Shown here one piece after another: positions 2,925 to 10,879 of a DNA stretch of 11,255 bases. The translations under genes and the position numbers were made by a program. The first letter of the stretch is position 1; each line of letters starts with the position of its first letter. The DNA comes from a virus (lineage: Duplodnaviria; Heunggongvirae; Uroviricota; Caudoviricetes): the IMG/VR virus record IMGVR_UViG_2541047875_000011, positions 1-11,255 of that record. One strand, written 5' to 3'. The notes beneath the pieces are model-generated. The model searched no databases and was not told the origin of the DNA. It saw nothing but the letters and a program-made list of their open reading frames with translations.

Positions 2925-2934
2925 TGGGGTGAAT

Positions 2935-5289
2935 ATGGCAGTAAAGATTTCAGGTGTACTGAAAGATGGTGCAGGTAAGCCGGTACAAAACTGCACTATT
3001 CAACTGAAAGCCAGACGTAACAGCACCACGGTGGTGGTGAACACGGTGGCCTCAGAAAATCCGGATGAAGCAGGTCGTTACAGCATGGATGTTGAGTACG
3101 GTCAGTACAGCGTCAGTCTGTTGGTGGAGGGGTTCCCGCCGTCACATGCCGGGACCATCACCGTCTATGAAGATTCCCGACCCGGTACGCTGAATGATTT
3201 TCTCGGTGCCATGACGGAGGATGATGCCCGTCCGGAGGCACTGCGGCGTTTTGAACTGATGGTGGAAGAAGCGGCACGTAACGCTGAAGCCGCCTCTAAG
3301 AGCGCAGCGGCGGCAAAGAAATCCGAAACTGCAGCGGCATCATCGAAGAACGCGGCGAAAACCTCAGAAACGAATGCAGCTAATAGTGCACAGGCGGCAG
3401 CGACCTCACAGACTGCATCAGCAAACTCCGCGACAGCAGCCAAAAAATCAGAAACCAACGCGAAAAACAGCGAGACAGCCGCAAAGACGAGTGAAACTAA
3501 CGCAAAGTCCAGCCAGACGGCAGCGAAGACCAGCGAAACGAATGCCAAAGCCAGTGAAACTGCGGCGAAAAGCAGTCAGGATGCAGCAGCCGAAAGCGAG
3601 AGTGCTGCAGCCGGTTCTGCGACTTCAGCAGCTGGATCAGCAACTGCTGCGGCTAACAGCCAGAAAGCCGCGAAGACGAGCGAAACTAACGCAAAGTCCA
3701 GCCAGACGGCAGCGAAGACCAGCGAAACGAATGCCAAAGCCAGCGAAACTGCGGCGAAAAACAGTCAGGATGCAGCAGCCCAAAGCGAGAGTGCCGCAGC
3801 TGGTTCTGCAACAGCGGCAGCTAATAGCCAAAAAGCTGCAAAAACCAGTGAAACTAACGCAAAGACGAGTGAAACAAAAGCAGCAGCCAGCGAGACAGAA
3901 GCAACGTCAGCCGCAACAAGAGCAGAGAATGCAGCCCGGATTGCAGAAGATGCCGCTGATCCTGCTTCTGTCCCTCCGCTTCCTGATATCTGGCTACCCT
4001 TGAATGATTCTCTGGAAGCGATAACAGGGTATGCCCCGGGCTATAAAACAATAACCATCGGCAGTGATGAAATAACAATGCCTGTTAATGGCATATGCCA
4101 ATTTAGCCGGGCTTCATCTGCAACGTATATTGATAAGTCCGGGCATATTACCGTGGCAGGGAATAACGTTCCTCGTTTTGAAAAATATGGTTTGCTGATA
4201 GAGAATCAGCGAACAAACATGTTCGTAAATAGTTTTAATCCTGATGCCTGGAATAAAAGCGGTGGTATATCTGTAACATCATCAACAGATGAATTTGAGT
4301 TTAAATATGGACGTTTCACGGTAGGAAGCGATATAGCAGGAACGACAACAGGGCGAAATATATGCACAGTTGCTGGTAACAAAGGCATAGATGTGACTGG
4401 CGATGATCAGTACAGTAAAGGTCCGTATGTTACCGCGTCGTTCAGGGTAAGAAGTGATCTCAATGTTCGCGCACGTATCCGTTTTGAACGGTATAACTCG
4501 GAAGGATACACCTTCCTTTGCGACGCCTATTTGTCATTACAGACCCATGAACTACAAATTACTGGTGGCAATGCCCAGCTATTAACAGCAAACTTTGAAA
4601 TCGATCCAGGTAGTGGATGGATATATTTTCAGGCAACACTGAAATGTCTGCCAGAATGGGGAATGGTTGGTACGCAGCTGCAAATTGCAGCCGACAGAGC
4701 AGTGGGGGCTTTTGCAACAGGTGACTGGATAGAAGTAACCACCCCGCAATTCGAGTATGGTGCCTGTGCAACTTCCTTTATCATAACGACAACAGAGCCA
4801 GCGACTCGTGCATCAGATTTATGTAAATTTCCGCTGATGAAAAATATGTATACCATGCCTTTTACGTTCATGGTGGAAGTCCATAAAAACTGGTTTATTT
4901 CTCATAATGCTGCACCGCGTGTCATTGATTCAGAAAATCACCAGTCCGGAGGCCCATTTATTATGGGGTTTGGTTCTTCTGGAACTATCAGTCAGGATGG
5001 TTATTCGTATTGCGATATAGGCGGGGCTAACCGGCGTGTATATGAGTCATGCGGAGTAAGAGATCTCGTTATGGGATTCAGGGTTAAGGCTGACGGCATG
5101 ACATGCTCATTTGCAAATAAGAATATAAGCACTGAAACCAAAACAGTATGGAAATATATTCGTGAAGCAGCCGTGATTCGTATCGGGGGGCAAACGACGA
5201 CAGGATTACGACACCTTAATGGTCATATAAAAAACCTCCGTTTCTGGAACAGAGCATTGTCAGATACGCAGATTAAGGAATACGTATAA
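2935..5289 (+). CDS. stf: Side tail fibre protein, mosaic: lambda Stf-like N-terminal anchor, Ala/Ser/Thr/Lys repeat shaft, and a divergent low-GC C-terminal module ending in a LamG/ConA-like motif
   Basis: The track ORF starts at GTG 2929, but ATG 2935 gives MAVKISGVLKDGAGKPVQNCTIQLKA, matching the lambda/Rac Stf N-terminus, with SD GGGGTG upstream. The middle has KTSETNAKSSQTAAK-type repeats as in StfR. After ~3955 the sequence is unrelated and AT-richer, ending ...LNGHIKNLRFWNRALSDTQIKEYV, which resembles the last strand of LamG-type jelly-roll domains. Stop TAA at 5287-5289. Confidence 0.85.
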   Translation: MAVKISGVLKDGAGKPVQNCTIQLKARRNSTTVVVNTVASENPDEAGRYSMDVEYGQYSVSLLVEGFPPSHAGTITVYEDSRPGTLNDFLGAMTEDDARPEALRRFELMVEEAARNAEAASKSAAAAKKSETAAASSKNAAKTSETNAANSAQAAATSQTASANSATAAKKSETNAKNSETAAKTSETNAKSSQTAAKTSETNAKASETAAKSSQDAAAESESAAAGSATSAAGSATAAANSQKAAKTSETNAKSSQTAAKTSETNAKASETAAKNSQDAAAQSESAAAGSATAAANSQKAAKTSETNAKTSETKAAASETEATSAATRAENAARIAEDAADPASVPPLPDIWLPLNDSLEAITGYAPGYKTITIGSDEITMPVNGICQFSRASSATYIDKSGHITVAGNNVPRFEKYGLLIENQRTNMFVNSFNPDAWNKSGGISVTSSTDEFEFKYGRFTVGSDIAGTTTGRNICTVAGNKGIDVTGDDQYSKGPYVTASFRVRSDLNVRARIRFERYNSEGYTFLCDAYLSLQTHELQITGGNAQLLTANFEIDPGSGWIYFQATLKCLPEWGMVGTQLQIAADRAVGAFATGDWIEVTTPQFEYGACATSFIITTTEPATRASDLCKFPLMKNMYTMPFTFMVEVHKNWFISHNAAPRVIDSENHQSGGPFIMGFGSSGTISQDGYSYCDIGGANRRVYESCGVRDLVMGFRVKADGMTCSFANKNISTETKTVWKYIREAAVIRIGGQTTTGLRHLNGHIKNLRFWNRALSDTQIKEYV
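3478..3865 (+). repeat. Tandem direct repeat (~189 bp and ~168 bp units, about 2 copies plus degenerate shorter units) inside the stf shaft region
   Basis: The string GAAACTAACGCAAAGTCCAGCCAGACGGCAGCGAAGACCAGCGAAACGAATGCCAAAGCCAG occurs near 3493 and again near 3682 with few mismatches; copy 2 lacks a 21-nt segment. Degenerate 15-18-nt units (AAxACxAGxGAAAC) extend over about 3290-3900. Confidence 0.8.
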
Positions 5290-7311: not shown

Positions 7312-7905
7312 ATGAACGCAGTAAAAGATATTCGCAATCCGGTGCATCTCGGAAACGGCGCGGTTGACTGTGAGGTGCTGTTTGAGGGGCGCAGCGAGTA
7401 CGTTGTTTATACGGCTGCGCCGGGCGACGCAGCCCCGACAGGTCAGCGTATCTGGCAGGAACTACAGAGCGGCAAATGGGGCGAAATTGCCCCGTTCACG
7501 GCCACGCCGGAACTGATAGCGGCGGCGAAGGATGCAAAACGTCAGGAAATTGAGGTGTGGCGTACCGAACAGGAAGCGCAGTCGTTCACGTTTGAGTGGA
7601 ACGGTCGAACCTGGAACGCGGGGCCGTCCTCACTGGCCCGGCTCACGCCTGCGATTACGGCGGCGGAATACGCCGGCGAGCAGGCTGTTACCTGGAGCGA
7701 TACAACCAACGAGCCGGTAAACCTGACAGTGCAGGAACTGAAATCGCTGGCCGTCGCACTGGCTCAGGCACTCTCTGAGCGGAACAACGCGATTTATCGT
7801 CGCCAGCGGGAGATGAAGGATACGTTAAACACCCTGGAGAATCTGGCAGAGGTGCAGGCGTTTAAGGTTGGAGAACAATCTATATTGGGGGTAAGCCGTA
7901 TTTAG
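7312..7905 (+). CDS. Hypothetical protein (197 aa) immediately downstream of the second fibre gene; possible fibre assembly or chaperone-like protein, family not confidently recognised
   Basis: ATG 7312 with SD GGTGAG 4-5 nt upstream. Its C-terminus lacks the Tfa LL.EAW..YRVLLNRVD motif, so it is not a classical Tfa. The assignment is positional. Confidence 0.45.
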
Positions 7906-8209
7906 CTCTTGCGCGGTTACACGCCTCATTGACGACGCCGTTCTCGCCAGACATGGCGAATTCTCTGCATGTGGATGATCGATTTTCATATATCGTGCAG
8001 CAGGCATTTTTGCCCGGAGTTCCAGCAAGGGCAACACATCTGGGGTTTTTCTGGTTTGTACCGATCATGCATCGGTGAAAAGGCGATACTTGTTCAGTAA
8101 GTCTGGCGGGAATGGTGCCGCCGGCATCGTCGGCTTCGGCCCAGTAAAAAGAGACGCGGAAAAATGCACAACAGGCGCCACACGTCATGCATGGATTCAG
8201 ATTGCTCAT
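7880..8209 (-). CDS. YkgJ-family Cys-cluster protein (CxxCxxCC putative zinc/iron-chelating domain), 109 aa
   Basis: N-terminus [21 protein letters not shown] contains C-x2-C-x2-CC, plus further C-terminal cysteines. Its 3' end overlaps the convergent ORF 7312-7905 by 26 bp. Confidence 0.65.
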
Positions 8210-8241
8210 AATTCACCAGTACAGCTATAAATCATAAAGAA

Positions 8242-8278
8242 AACAGCGGTACGTCGTATGAAAGAACTTACCGCTGTT
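8242..8278 (-). terminator. Candidate stem-loop / terminator downstream of the dinI-like gene on the minus strand
   Basis: 10-bp inverted repeat AACAGCGGTA (8242-8251) / TACCGCTGTT (8269-8278) with a 17-nt loop. On the minus strand it is followed by TTCTTTAT. An outer inverted repeat TTCACCAG (8212-8219) / CTGGTGAA (8281-8288) flanks it. Confidence 0.3.
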
Positions 8279-8345
8279 GGCTGGTGAACTTTTCGATAGT
8301 GCGAGTATTGAATGATTTCCAGCCGTTACCGATTTTACTCGTTAA

Positions 8346-8594
8346 TTAGCGAACAAACCACTCGTCAGCAGACTCCCAGGTATCTTTCAGCGTCTCCTGA
8401 ACAAAAGTTTTTGCAGAATCTTTATCGGCGGTGCGAGTAACTGAAAGGCCATCGTTGCTGGTGGCTTTTATGATCACTTCTACATCGTCATAACGCTTAC
8501 TGATGCGTCGGGTTAATTCTTCCTTTAACGCATCCACAGCACCGTTTGGCATTTTAGTCATTTTTTCTTTGGCTATGCAGATCTCAATACGCAT
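8346..8594 (-). CDS. DinI-like protein (DinI family, SOS-induced RecA modulator homologue), 82 aa
   Basis: [31 protein letters not shown]...[11 protein letters not shown] resembles E. coli DinI (MRIEVTIAK ... ETWESADDWF). SD GAGGGA upstream; tandem LexA boxes in the promoter region. Confidence 0.8.
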
Positions 8595-8607
8595 AAAAGT
8601 CCCTCTA

Positions 8608-8627
8608 TACTGTGTTTGTATACAGTA
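8608..8627. promoter_or_regulatory. LexA (SOS) box 1 upstream of the dinI-like gene
   Basis: TACTGTGTTTGTATACAGTA is a perfect match to the TACTGT-N8-ACAGTA consensus, 14 bp upstream of the dinI-like start codon. Confidence 0.8.
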
Positions 8628-8635
8628 TTATTTTT

Positions 8636-8655
8636 AACTGTATGGATAAACAGTG
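8636..8655. promoter_or_regulatory. LexA (SOS) box 2, abutting the integrase stop codon
   Basis: AACTGTATGGATAAACAGTG contains CTGT-N8-ACAG, 8 bp from box 1 and directly adjacent to the integrase stop at 8656-8658. Confidence 0.65.
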
Positions 8656-9753
8656 TCAAGAGGTCTTATTTCTGCTCCTTTGGAGCTCTTCAAAACGATT
8701 ATGTAAAGATTTCGGATACAGTTCAGTATATACCTGCCATAGCACGTTTAATGAACGATGCCCTGTGACCTGGGCGACTTCCTCAATACTAAAACCAGCC
8801 TCAAATAAGCGACTTGCCCCTTCTCTACGCAAATCATGGTATCGCAGATCCTTAATACCTAATTTGCTTCTTACCCTCTGAAATCCCGCAGTAACAGAAG
8901 TGCTGTTATATGGAAAAATGAATTCCGATTTTTTGGGCTGTCGTTGGACGATATCCCAGGCTTCCCCAAGCAAGGCTACTTTCATGTGGTTGCCTTCCTT
9001 TTTGCGTGGATCTTTCCTGTCTCTTACGAGTATAGATTTTTGTTCCTGGTCGAGATCTTCCCATCGTAACCGGCATACTTCTCCGATCCGCATACAGGAC
9101 CACACAGAAAATTTGAGGATATCAACGAACGGAATTTTTGAGCATTTATGAGTAGATCGTTGTTGAAGGCCTTCAATGAGCATGTCCAGTTCATCAGATG
9201 CTGGTCTACGATTACGACGGTTTGATTTACCAATCAAACCAAGTTTAAGTAGATATGGGCGAGCGCTTTTCGCCGGGTTTGATGTGTAATTAATTCCGTA
9301 TACAGGTTTGGCCGCATCCAGAACACTGCCAAGATAACTAACATCGTGGCTGACTGTTGCTGGACCTGCACCAGCGTTGTTTCTTAGCCTGCAATGTTCA
9401 ATTACGTCATTTTCTGTCAGTTCAGATAGTTTGATCGCGGAGATGTCACTATCCATAAGCAGTTCCAGCACATATCTTTTAGTACGGCCTGCTTTACCTC
9501 CGGCATTTGGGTCATTTAAATATTTGTGTAGTAAGTCACGGACTGTAAGTCCGTCAACTGCATTTGATGATGGAATGCCATATAGATCTAATTCCATCAC
9601 TTTCTGTGTTCCCCATGTTTTGGCATGAGCATGTTTAGGGAATGTTTTGCTTTCCCTGTAAGTGATAACACCTTTTTCTTTGATAATCACATTACAGCGA
9701 TAGCGTGGTGTGCCATCGGATTTTAGTCGTTTCTCTATGTTATAGTACGCCAT
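8656..9753 (-). CDS. int: Prophage tyrosine integrase (site-specific recombinase, dusA-targeting type by context)
   Basis: 365-aa ORF with a C-terminal catalytic region carrying H-x-x-R (YHDLRREGASRL) and the tyrosine nucleophile (LWQVYTELY). SD GAGG 7 nt upstream on the minus strand. Divergent from dusA and only 88 bp from it. Confidence 0.9.
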   Translation of the reverse strand: MAYYNIEKRLKSDGTPRYRCNVIIKEKGVITYRESKTFPKHAHAKTWGTQKVMELDLYGIPSSNAVDGLTVRDLLHKYLNDPNAGGKAGRTKRYVLELLMDSDISAIKLSELTENDVIEHCRLRNNAGAGPATVSHDVSYLGSVLDAAKPVYGINYTSNPAKSARPYLLKLGLIGKSNRRNRRPASDELDMLIEGLQQRSTHKCSKIPFVDILKFSVWSCMRIGEVCRLRWEDLDQEQKSILVRDRKDPRKKEGNHMKVALLGEAWDIVQRQPKKSEFIFPYNSTSVTAGFQRVRSKLGIKDLRYHDLRREGASRLFEAGFSIEEVAQVTGHRSLNVLWQVYTELYPKSLHNRFEELQRSRNKTS

Positions 9754-9841: not shown

Positions 9842-10879
9842 ATGCACGATAATCATGAAACACAAAAAATTAATCAAACCAGCGTGATGCCTGAAAAAAC
9901 TGGTGTTTACTGGAATTCTCGGTTTAGCATTGCTCCTATGCTTGACTGGACGGACAGACATTGCCGTTATTTCTTGCGTCTGCTTTCCCGCAATACGTTG
10001 TTGTATACCGAAATGGTGACCACAGGGGCGATTATTCACGGTAAAGGTGATTACCTGGCGTACAGTGAAGAAGAACATCCGGTAGCGTTGCAACTCGGGG
10101 GTAGCGATCCGGCGGCGCTGGCACAGTGTGCGAAGCTGGCAGAAGCGCGTGGATATGATGAGATCAACCTGAATGTCGGCTGCCCGTCTGACCGGGTGCA
10201 GAACGGCATGTTTGGTGCGTGTCTGATGGGTAATGCGCAGCTGGTTGCCGACTGCGTGAAAGCGATGCGCGATGTGGTGTCGATTCCGGTGACGGTGAAA
10301 ACGCGTATTGGCATCGATGATCAGGACAGCTATGAATTTCTCTGCGATTTCATCAACACCGTTTCCGGCAAAGGTGAGTGTGAGATGTTCATCATCCACG
10401 CACGTAAAGCCTGGCTTTCTGGGTTAAGTCCGAAAGAAAACCGTGAGATCCCGCCTCTCGATTATCCGCGTGTGTATCAACTGAAGCGTGACTTTCCGCA
10501 TCTGACGATGTCGATTAACGGTGGTATCAAGTCGCTGGAAGAAGCTAAAGCGCATTTGCAACATATGGATGGCGTGATGGTCGGGCGCGAGGCGTATCAG
10601 AATCCGGGTATTCTGGCGGCGGTAGACCGAGAGATTTTTGGTTCCTCGGATACCGATGCCGATCCGGTGGCGGTAGTGCGCGCCATGTATCCGTACATTG
10701 AGCGTGAACTCAGCCAGGGTACGTATCTCGGCCATATTACCCGGCATATGCTGGGCTTGTTCCAGGGTATTCCTGGCGCGCGGCAGTGGCGGCGTTATTT
10801 AAGTGAAAATGCCCATAAAGCGGGTGCAGACATTAATGTGCTGGAACACGCGCTCAAACTGGTGGCGGATAAGCGTTAA
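9842..10879 (+). CDS. dusA: tRNA-dihydrouridine(20/20a) synthase DusA
   Basis: 345-aa ORF with the Dus family TIM-barrel signature ([33 protein letters not shown], catalytic Cys region). It matches E. coli DusA essentially along its full length as I recall it. An alternative start at ATG 9887 (MPEKTG...) would give 330 aa. Confidence 0.93.

Follow-up and report, generated by a model that had tools for sequence, protein, structure and literature searches.

A predicted LexA-controlled dinI-like gene and a ykgJ copy in an accessory cassette ending an Escherichia coli lambda-like prophage

In the stretch of viral DNA analyzed here (the window, 11,255 bases), the block between the tail module and the integrase gene is an ordinary accessory cassette that ends an Escherichia coli lambda-like prophage. 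In our reading, to which we assign a probability of roughly 0.7, this is a mobile cassette of lambdoid coliphages with a LexA-repressed paralogue of DinI that would act at RecA, and with a ykgJ copy that would be a dispensable passenger behind a terminator-like hairpin, not a partner of dinI. The cassette is already known, and a homologous copy is annotated with an SOS box in the public VT1-Sakai record (AP000400).

According to the ORF map, int, a 61-bp spacer (8595-8655, between the stop codon of int and the ATG of dinI), a DinI-family gene and a PF03692 CxxCxxCC gene follow each other in this order on the minus strand (Table 1), in agreement with the gene coordinates and the common strand given in an earlier note on this sequence. 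The 26-bp overlap of the CxxCxxCC gene with the convergent tail ORF (7880-7905), also described in that note, was found as well; the tail ORF, which encodes DUF4376, ends with codons read antisense to the 3' part of ykgJ, and this marks a mosaic junction. The placement of the block had been called notable. It does lie beside int and the attachment-site end, but this is the usual slot for lambdoid accessory genes at the tail-fibre end.

Table 1. Positions in the window of the cassette elements and their neighbours.
Feature	Position	Strand	Basis or remark
Last tail-module ORF, DUF4376	7312-7905	+	ORF, Pfam; convergent with the ykgJ copy
ykgJ copy, CxxCxxCC Cys-cluster protein, 109 aa	7880-8209	-	PF03692, E=5.3e-11
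Hairpin, arms 8242-8254 and 8266-8278	8232-8278	-	13 nt, 92% complementary, then UUUUCUUUAU
DinI-like gene, 82 aa	8346-8594	-	PF06183, E=1.5e-19
Shine-Dalgarno GAGGG	8601-8605	-	6 nt 5' of the dinI-like ATG; read from sequence
Proximal predicted LexA box CTGTATACAAACACAG	8610-8625		just 3' of the -10 region, over the expected transcription start
-10 region TAAAAAT	8630-8636	-	TAAAAA with a 17-nt or AAAAAT with an 18-nt spacer
Distal predicted LexA box CTGTTTATCCATACAG	8638-8653		occupies the spacer between -35 and -10
-35 hexamer TTGACA, dinI-like promoter	8654-8659	-	promoter scan; upstream boundary of the mobile cassette
int stop codon TGA	8656-8658	-	shares bases with the dinI -35 element
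int, tyrosine integrase, dusA-associated type, 365 aa	8656-9753	-	ORF; Phage_integrase PF00589, E=1.1e-20
attR core ATTGCTCCTATGCTTGA	9929-9945		inside the dusA 5' end

The PHROG matches of int were integrase families, and the prophage has the features of the dusA-associated integrase family described in PMC4482086: int stands beside the dusA 5' end in divergent orientation, the att repeats are imperfect, and a replacement dusA 5' end (9842-9928) is supplied by the prophage. In strain A24, which matches the window at 99.47% identity along the full 11,255 bases, the left end of the prophage has an imperfect repeat of the attR core beside the displaced 5' end of the native dusA, a pattern described for these integrases (PMC4482086). 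The repressor of this near-identical A24 prophage has HTH_3 and Peptidase_S24 domains and is of the autocleavable type, and the nin region of the same prophage encodes a 108-aa protein with a LexA DNA-binding domain and without a cleavage domain.

In order to evaluate the LexA boxes, we searched the window for the sequence CTGT-N8-ACAG and found it at exactly two sites, both inside the 61-bp spacer, where the earlier note had placed two LexA boxes; the chance expectation is 0.13 sites per window, and two sites were reached in one of 200 shuffles. Both boxes lie within a σ70-like promoter (TTGACA-17/18-TAAAAAT) detected by the promoter scan. They were then scored against the 20-mer consensus TACTGT(AT)4ACAGTA. 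The 20-mer of the proximal box, TACTGTATACAAACACAGTA (8608-8627), matches the consensus at 17 of 20 positions with both 6-nt arms perfect, and that of the distal box, CACTGTTTATCCATACAGTT (8636-8655), at 15 of 20, so the description of one box as a perfect consensus applies to the arms of the proximal box but not to its whole 20-mer. When one of the two is read on the opposite strand, the proximal box agrees at 18 of 20 positions with the box of Gifsy-2 dinI, which has a heterology index of 3.92 and is damage-induced. One-mismatch LexA-like sites were also in excess (12 in the window versus 3.7 expected). Ten of these lie outside the dinI spacer and have no perfect arms; those that were placed on the ORF map fall in coding sequence, several of them in tail-fibre genes, and none within the int-dusA or dinI-ykgJ spacers. 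Judged by its sequence, the spacer is a compact predicted SOS promoter, whose -35 element overlaps the int stop codon and whose boxes cover the -35/-10 spacer and the start. As in the LexA regulon, the operator, here two sites, overlaps the promoter and is kept in the homologous promoters.

Homologous cassettes in four upstream contexts that are unrelated to each other keep this promoter and box layout, and their homology starts exactly at the -35 hexamer. The CTGT/ACAG arms of the proximal box are intact in all 79 complete copies on viral contigs, with changes confined to the N8 spacer; the contigs were found by a promoter-pattern scan whose search pattern did not include the proximal box. 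These observations make it very improbable that the boxes are fortuitous and the cassette a decaying relic. The ykgJ part clearly decays and dinI is disrupted in 5 of 80 viral-contig copies, but dinI is intact in 74 of the 80, the box positions and arms are conserved across contexts, and the two perfect-arm boxes stand against the small number expected by chance.

Homologous cassettes were compared in several phage records. That of VT1-Sakai (H0001, dinI; H0002, ykgJ-like) encodes a DinI protein 96% identical to the one studied here and has the same promoter, box positions, hairpin spacer and site after the tail fibres by the att end; its record carries the annotations "putative SOS box" and "putative promoter of H0001 and H0002". 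In VT1-Sakai, however, the cassette lies directly against attR in yehV, int is at the opposite prophage end, the ykgJ copy is truncated, with about 34 residues homologous, and the first arm of the distal box in copies of this type is CTGG. The dinI gene, the promoter and the overlap of the int stop codon with the -35 element are shared with mEp460 (gp21, DinI; gp22, integrase) and phage cdtI (gp30), with 94.5% nucleotide identity and the same dusA-type integrase, whereas a ykgJ copy is absent there and a tail fibre gene directly follows dinI. The mEp460 record annotates the same promoter, as does that of VT1-Sakai, and the int-dinI junction is as in mEp460 in 63 of 80 IMG/VR contigs. The cassette was found in 1805 of 5426 complete E. 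coli genomes, with up to seven copies per genome, and in 136 phage records; a contig scan with the single DinI-like sequence returned four near-identical loci only.

The 82-aa protein had been assigned to the DinI family, and the profile searches bear this out. It matches PF06183 with 70.5 bits (cutoff 24.2) over profile positions 1-63 of 63, and PHROG 189, "RecA filament binding protein DinI", with E=6e-31, covering only positions 71-149 of the 151 in that profile. The NCBIfam equivalog NF007893 gave 71 bits, under the cutoff of 111 for a DinI orthologue. The protein aligns over its full length to PDB 1GHH and 7YWA (E=1e-12) and is identical to K-12 DinI at 36 of 81 residues. Chromosomal E. 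coli DinI (1GHH; RecA complex, 7YWA) is likewise about 80 aa long, shares the RecA contacts and has an upstream LexA box, but it has one operator of 15/20 (a single site within the 110 nt that precede K-12 dinI), compared with two of 15-17/20 at the phage copy. The RecA contacts of E. coli DinI comprise a hydrophobic pocket (L13, L21, W71, W77, F78) and an acidic patch (E24, E69, D76), to which M15, L23, W73, W79 and F80, and E26, D71 and E78, correspond here. All eight are thus kept, five identical and three as conservative replacements. We regard the protein as a paralogue of chromosomal DinI and predict that it binds in the RecA filament groove; given the score of 71 versus 111 bits and the identity of 36/81, its activity could differ from that of DinI. 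Among LexA-controlled phage genes, tum of phage 186 and its split counterpart in PSP3 and Fels-2 have a DinI-like part, but Tum has an N-terminal antirepressor half, whereas the protein here consists of the DinI part only. No PADLOC defence-system model was matched by the DinI-like or the ykgJ-copy protein.

From the box positions, and by analogy with the Gifsy promoters, LexA dimers would sit on the two operators in an undamaged lysogen, at the -35/-10 spacer and the start site, and the promoter would be shut because both are occupied. After DNA damage, RecA would become active, LexA would cleave itself, the promoter would open and the 82-aa protein would be made. Residue conservation suggests that it may dock in the groove of RecA-ssDNA through its hydrophobic pocket and acidic patch, and this groove is the one used by LexA, UmuD and lambda-CI-type repressors. 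Considering the shared groove and the autocleavable S24 repressor, an extra phage DinI would be expected to stabilise RecA filaments and to compete with slowly cleaved substrates, namely the CI-type repressor and UmuD. Induction and SOS mutagenesis would thereby change in their threshold or timing. Since the RecA contacts are conserved and the prophage's own repressor is of the S24 type, it is plausible that the DinI-like protein tunes the RecA coprotease and hence prophage induction, and for Stx phages this idea has been published before. Both stabilisation of RecA filaments and, when the protein is in excess, inhibition of RecA are reported for E. coli DinI, so that the sign of any effect on induction is unpredictable.

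An experimental parallel to the predicted control is the dinI-antirepressor-irsA operon of the Salmonella prophages Gifsy-1, -2 and -3, where a LexA-box promoter also lies directly 5' of a prophage dinI homologue. The Gifsy dinI homologues were induced 4.6- to 23-fold by nalidixic acid, and replacing the box region abolished control by mitomycin C. The Gifsy operon has one box, not two, and is located in the nin region, not at the att end; its dinI is followed by an antirepressor gene (gfoA/gftA) and irsA, both absent here, and the Gifsy repressors are not cleaved, in contrast to the S24 repressor of the present prophage. A module of that type, in which an antirepressor expressed under LexA control would disable a phage repressor that is not cleavable, was considered, as the Gifsy-2 dinI homologue is identical to the DinI-like protein at 35 residues. 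It is effectively refuted by the Peptidase_S24 domain of the repressor and by the 136-bp dinI-ykgJ spacer (8210-8345), in which there is no minus-strand ORF of at least 20 aa; moreover, the 73-aa and 200-aa genes of the Gifsy module have no counterpart here. An identification of irsA as a YkgJ-type gene was also rejected, because the Gifsy-2 gene at that position encodes 200 aa and a tblastn search with the 109-aa protein returned no Salmonella or Gifsy phage record among the matches listed.

A possible alternative, which we hold to be clearly less likely than our main reading but compatible with it, is that dinI is kept mainly for the benefit of the host, where the paralogue would damp UmuD cleavage and SOS mutagenesis or aid survival when DNA is damaged or within host cells, with no real role in induction. 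The slot after the tail fibres holds effector genes in EHEC prophages, and several cassette copies can coexist in one genome, as noted above. MsgA of Salmonella is a DinI-family protein linked to macrophage survival. Its gene stands beside the prophage dinI homologues in a table of LexA-box, damage-induced genes. In the one experimental test made on homologues, induction of Gifsy-1 and Gifsy-3 did not change significantly when dinI was removed by non-polar deletion. The mechanism that we propose is not fairly tested by these deletions, because the Gifsy prophages are induced via antirepressors and not by repressor cleavage. On the other hand, the cassette is retained in records of isolated phages, e.g., mEp460, which implies that it passes through lytic cycles as part of the phage itself.

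The 109-aa protein is of the YkgJ type, as had been suggested, since it matches PF03692 with 43.5 bits (cutoff 23). The N-terminal CxxCxxCC motif is present (C7-x2-C10-x2-C13-C14), and C7, C10, C13, C14, C71 and C81 are invariant among 39 homologues. A PDB sequence search with this protein found no solved relative, and the AlphaFold2 model built on the 39 homologues had a mean pLDDT of 41.7, too low for use. The protein is identical to K-12 YkgJ at 104 of 109 residues, and its gene has about 92% nucleotide identity to chromosomal ykgJ. The homology with the K-12 ykgJ locus (between yagU and ecpE) extends over 7896-8403, through the hairpin spacer into the 3' part of dinI, but in K-12 dinI is a decayed upstream remnant and the LexA promoter is gone. 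The same hairpin is kept 5' of K-12 ykgJ. With its U-tract, it is likely to be an intrinsic terminator after dinI, as read from the sequence; it was missed by the terminator scan, and its loop, of about 9-11 nt, is above the 3-8 nt limit of that scan.

These data bear on the pairing of dinI with the YkgJ-type gene, which the earlier note had considered notable and which the present analysis does not uphold. A two-gene SOS operon would have both genes co-transcribed and acting together, for instance with the Cys-cluster protein linking SOS to cell division. It would agree with the single promoter that the VT1-Sakai annotators gave to both genes, with a promoter scan that detected no σ70-like promoter between dinI and ykgJ, with the 24 synonymous versus 6 non-synonymous codon differences between the ykgJ copy and K-12 ykgJ, and with the filaments formed in biofilms by a K-12 ykgJ deletion. 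We nevertheless judge it unlikely. The hairpin and U-tract separate the two genes, and related prophages as a rule have an intact dinI but a ykgJ that is shortened, frameshifted or missing: this is the case in mEp460, VT1-Sakai and Stx phages, and an intact ykgJ was found in 0 of 80 related viral contigs. K-12, conversely, retains ykgJ and has lost dinI and its LexA promoter. Furthermore, YkgJ also has a long form, of about 134 aa compared with the 109 aa of the short form. The examined orthologues of the long form in Salmonella and Raoultella are situated between ompW and yciC, and their 4-kb flanks contain no DinI-family gene. A near-duplicate of a chromosomal gene, the ykgJ copy is in our main reading a passenger.

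A more elaborate scheme, rather doubtful as a whole, proposes an SOS interface of three parts in mEp460-type phages: the S24 repressor, which would be cleaved on RecA filaments, the DinI paralogue, which would be repressed by LexA at two boxes and occupy the same RecA groove, and the 108-aa LexA-like protein. The 108-aa protein, an uncleavable LexA look-alike, could re-close LexA-box promoters, those of phage dinI and of host SOS genes, after the lytic start; with these promoters re-closed, expression of the DinI-like protein would be confined to a brief burst, by which induction in all co-resident prophages would be timed or gated. As a separate element of this scheme, the "core" ykgJ of E. 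coli would be a domesticated relic of the phage cassette.

If it is true that phage DinI alters the rate at which CI-type repressors are cleaved on RecA filaments, many lambdoid prophages, Shiga-toxin phages among them, would be influenced in their induction under antibiotic or DNA-damage stress. The cassette is present, often in several copies, in about one third of the complete E. coli genomes that were screened. As the idea is published and the cassette annotated, the present instance contributes no more than a clean example, one in which the ykgJ copy is intact, as it rarely is. The evolutionary tie to chromosomal ykgJ is a modest curiosity.

Three further candidates were rejected. A match to Rfam CssrB (8111-8275, plus strand) scored 36.6 bits against a gathering score of 76 and is taken as noise; at E<=0.001 no match to this family was reported for the homologous loci of K-12, VT1-Sakai and Shigella. 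A plus-strand 42-aa ORF (8312-8440), antisense to the dinI 3' end, was considered as ykgS, but its K-12 counterpart is cut to 14 codons, and the paper on ykgS contains nothing that places this gene at the K-12 ykgJ/dinI-remnant locus. Finally, the ykgJ stub by ompW was considered as attB of "PPompW" phages; the ompW-yciC spacer is covered to at least 80% in 5422 of 5426 genomes, and it is intact in the O157:H7 strains listed.

In the 61 bp between the integrase stop codon and the ATG of the dinI-like gene, two LexA boxes of the form CTGT-N8-ACAG were found, as the earlier note had stated; its coordinates and sizes, including a 26-bp overlap of the 109-aa ORF with the tail ORF, are all correct. 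The motif occurs only at these two sites in the whole window, against 0.13 expected. The description of one box as a perfect consensus holds for the two arms of the proximal box, whereas its whole 20-mer (TACTGTATACAAACACAGTA) matches the LexA consensus at only 17 of 20 positions; the distal 20-mer matches at 15 of 20, the same score as that of the K-12 dinI operator. On the minus strand, the spacer reads TTGACA-[CTGTTTATCCATACAG]-TTAAAAAT-AATA-[CTGTATACAAACACAG]-TATAGAGGGACTTTT-ATG. The int stop codon and the -35 hexamer of the dinI promoter overlap. The distal box occupies the 17-nt spacer between the -35 and -10 elements, the proximal box begins a few bases 3' of the -10 region, and a ribosome-binding site, GAGGG, is located 6 nt 5' of the dinI ATG. 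This layout of boxes and promoter is typical of an SOS promoter, and LexA bound to either predicted box would keep RNA polymerase off the dinI promoter. The earlier observation as a whole is confirmed; its interpretation is supported in part, the protein identities and the SOS wiring being right and an effect on induction being plausible.

Features of the window and of the attachment site
Feature	Position	Strand
J	25-2208	+
lom and tail-fibre genes	between J and the DUF4376 ORF	+
DUF4376 ORF	7312-7905	+
109-aa ORF (ykgJ copy)	7880-8209	-
82-aa ORF (dinI-like)	8346-8594	-
Proximal LexA box	8610-8625	
Distal LexA box	8638-8653	
Integrase	8656-9753	-
dusA (host), then pspG	9842-10879	
att core, imperfect repeat ATTGC(C/T)CC(G/T)ATGCTTGA	9929-9945; second copy beside the displaced native dusA 5' end, left prophage end (L005, strain A24 prophage locus)	

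The window corresponds to the right end of a lambdoid prophage that is integrated in dusA of E. coli. Its alignment with strain A24 has no gaps over all 11,255 bases (99.47% identity), and its 1-kb segment 7800-8800 is present at 100% identity in eight complete E. coli genomes. In A24 the prophage is approximately 46 kb long and lies between zur and dusA. The prophage supplies a new dusA 5' end (window 9842-9928, followed by the att core up to 9945), and the native 5' end, ATGCCAGCAGAATCACAC...GATGCTTGA, is displaced to the left end (L005, about 7425-7485), an arrangement of att repeat and dusA known for dusA-associated integrases (PMC4482086). A gene for a Panacea-domain (SocA-like antitoxin) protein adjoins attL at the left end (L005 7740-8312), and after it come two small genes that lack annotation, then an excisionase-like gene of the PrtN family. 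Within the 786-aa tail-fibre ORF of the window (2929-5289), a 168-bp Ala/Ser/Thr/Lys-rich sequence is duplicated in tandem (3466-3633 and 3655-3822, 92% identical), and several one-mismatch LexA-like sites can also be observed; PGAP calls the collinear, gap-free A24 region as two pseudogene fragments.

Four unrelated sequences were found upstream of the promoter and dinI: in dusA-type phages the int stop, in VT1-Sakai-type phages the att end at yehV, in a third context a prophage end adjacent to prfC, and in the fourth another sequence. The homology starts exactly at the -35 hexamer in all four contexts, and this hexamer therefore marks where the mobile cassette begins on its upstream side. 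A scan of IMG/VR with a promoter pattern from which the proximal box had been left out found 85 stretches, and 80 listed loci were analyzed. In all 79 complete copies the proximal box retains both its arms, CTGT and ACAG, and only the N8 spacer varies. Full-length dinI is present in 74 of the 80 viral contigs, and a dusA-type integrase lies directly upstream of dinI in 63; in five copies (L030, L045, L061, L066 and L101) dinI is disrupted by frameshift, truncation or replacement behind an intact LexA-box promoter. Of the 5426 complete E. coli genomes, 1805 also carry the dinI and promoter stretch, with a maximum of seven copies in one genome, and the 1-kb query 7800-8800 across the block matched 136 phage records.

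The cassette was already annotated, and its relatives have been characterized experimentally. The record of the Stx1 phage VT1-Sakai (AP000400) contains homologous genes, H0001 (DinI) and H0002 (similar to YkgJ), with a "putative SOS box" and a "putative promoter of H0001 and H0002 genes"; in mEp460, a promoter and a "RecA filament binding protein DinI" are annotated beside the same integrase as in the window. In the Gifsy prophages of Salmonella, LexA control of the dinI-homologue promoter has been demonstrated genetically, and the homologues, each with a single box (heterology index 3.9-5.3), increase 4.6- to 23-fold with nalidixic acid. By sequence comparison, the Gifsy-2 box is identical to the proximal box, on the other strand, at 18 of 20 positions. 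The Gifsy module sits in the nin region with two further genes, both missing from the window cassette. A Gifsy-like antirepressor operon was rejected, given the cleavable S24 repressor and a dinI-ykgJ spacer in which a scan for minus-strand ORFs of at least 20 aa found none.

The 82-aa protein belongs to the DinI family, as previously proposed (Pfam DinI, E=1.5e-19), and aligns over its full length with E. coli DinI (PDB 1GHH and 7YWA, E=1e-12). On the basis of 36 identical residues out of 81, and of an NCBIfam DinI equivalog score of 71 bits against a cutoff of 111, it is a paralogue of E. coli DinI. In the RecA-DinI cryo-EM structure, a DinI pocket (L13, L21, W71, W77 and F78) takes RecA F203, and an acidic patch (E24, E69 and D76) lies opposite RecA K232, R243 and K245; the counterparts in the phage protein are M15, L23, W73, W79 and F80, and E26, D71 and E78, respectively. 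Prophages of this type have a repressor with HTH_3 and Peptidase_S24 domains, so they should be induced via RecA-stimulated self-cleavage. The best-supported mechanism, in which we infer operator occupancy, induction, RecA binding and the effect on prophage induction, is that a DinI paralogue released from LexA control alters RecA-dependent cleavage. LexA cleavage would open the dinI promoter; the paralogue would then bind the groove of the RecA filament and stabilize it, and by competing with slowly cleaved substrates it may change when, or at what threshold, the repressor and UmuD are cleaved. That phage DinI limits Stx-phage induction has already been suggested in print. Deletion of the dinI homologue of Gifsy-1 or Gifsy-3 did not significantly change induction; these phages rely on antirepressors and not on repressor cleavage, and the result may not carry over to S24-repressor phages.

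A second SOS-related gene of this prophage type lies in its nin region, beyond the window (A24, L005 19236-19562). The 108-aa protein that it encodes has the whole DNA-binding domain of LexA (PF01726, 69 bits) but lacks an S24 domain; its identity to LexA residues 1-86 is 43%, and 14 of 19 residues counted on the alignment around the recognition helix (LexA residues 38-56) are identical. Fifty phage records contain it with at least 94% identity. Those of mEp460, cdtI, SfII, SfIV, SfV and Stx2c phages are among them, and so are, among the matches listed, nine of nine phage records with int-adjacent dinI. This protein could serve as an uncleavable LexA mimic at LexA boxes, among them those of the phage's own dinI promoter. 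Full-text searches found no study of it.

The 109-aa protein matches PF03692 (CxxCxxCC, E=5.3e-11) in the profile search, but its pairing with dinI, considered notable in the earlier note, is not meaningful: the ykgJ copy is a passenger and not a partner of dinI. A hairpin with 13-nt arms (8242-8278) followed by UUUUCUUUAU parts the two genes, and ykgJ is lost or broken in relatives, being absent from mEp460, reduced to approximately 34 codons in VT1-Sakai and Stx phages, and frameshifted or replaced by effector genes in other related prophages. All 80 viral contigs lack an intact ykgJ, and seven of them have remnants. A weak Rfam CssrB match on the plus strand (8111-8275; 36.6 bits against a gathering score of 76), driven by the hairpin, is probably noise; at E<=0.001 the homologous loci of K-12, VT1-Sakai and Shigella gave no reported CssrB match. 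Six Cys residues are invariant among 39 YkgJ homologues, and the AlphaFold2 model of the 109-aa protein was unusable. The sole phenotype found in the literature is that a K-12 ykgJ deletion mutant filaments in biofilms.

The window copy shares 104 of 109 amino acids and about 92% of nucleotides with chromosomal K-12 ykgJ (24 synonymous and 6 non-synonymous codon differences). The homology runs from 7896 to 8403, crossing the hairpin spacer and reaching the 3' part of dinI. Accordingly, K-12 has in its ykgJ-ecpE spacer (4315-4600 of L009, the yagU-ykgJ-ecpE locus; homologous to window 8210-8403), besides the hairpin spacer, a decayed remnant of the 3' two-thirds of dinI, which has a deletion and neither a start codon nor a LexA promoter. 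Similarity of prophages to this spacer was noticed by Nakamura et al. (2021), who took part of it to be an attachment site for phages integrating into prophages; dinI is never named in their main text. In the yagU-ykgJ interval of K-12, immediately downstream of ykgJ, Rfam gives a strong match to IS009 (202 bits, L009 3743-3942), for which the window has no equivalent.

A ykgJ orthologue of 134-137 aa lies between ompW and yciC in those loci of Salmonella and Raoultella that were examined. The K-12 ompW-yciC spacer (L108 3265-3354) holds a stub of this long form (codons 106-134, 93% identical to E. albertii), which is the remnant of the ancestral gene; of 5426 E. coli genomes, 5422 have the stub-bearing spacer. 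Between the 109-aa YkgJ and the E. albertii long form, identity is only 73%. Taken together, these comparisons suggest that a phage delivered the "core" ykgJ of E. coli, a relic of the cassette that may have replaced the ancestral gene, the presumed transfer being from phage to chromosome. The 109-aa form ends at the LPPL motif where the K-12 stub begins, and the two break points coincide there.
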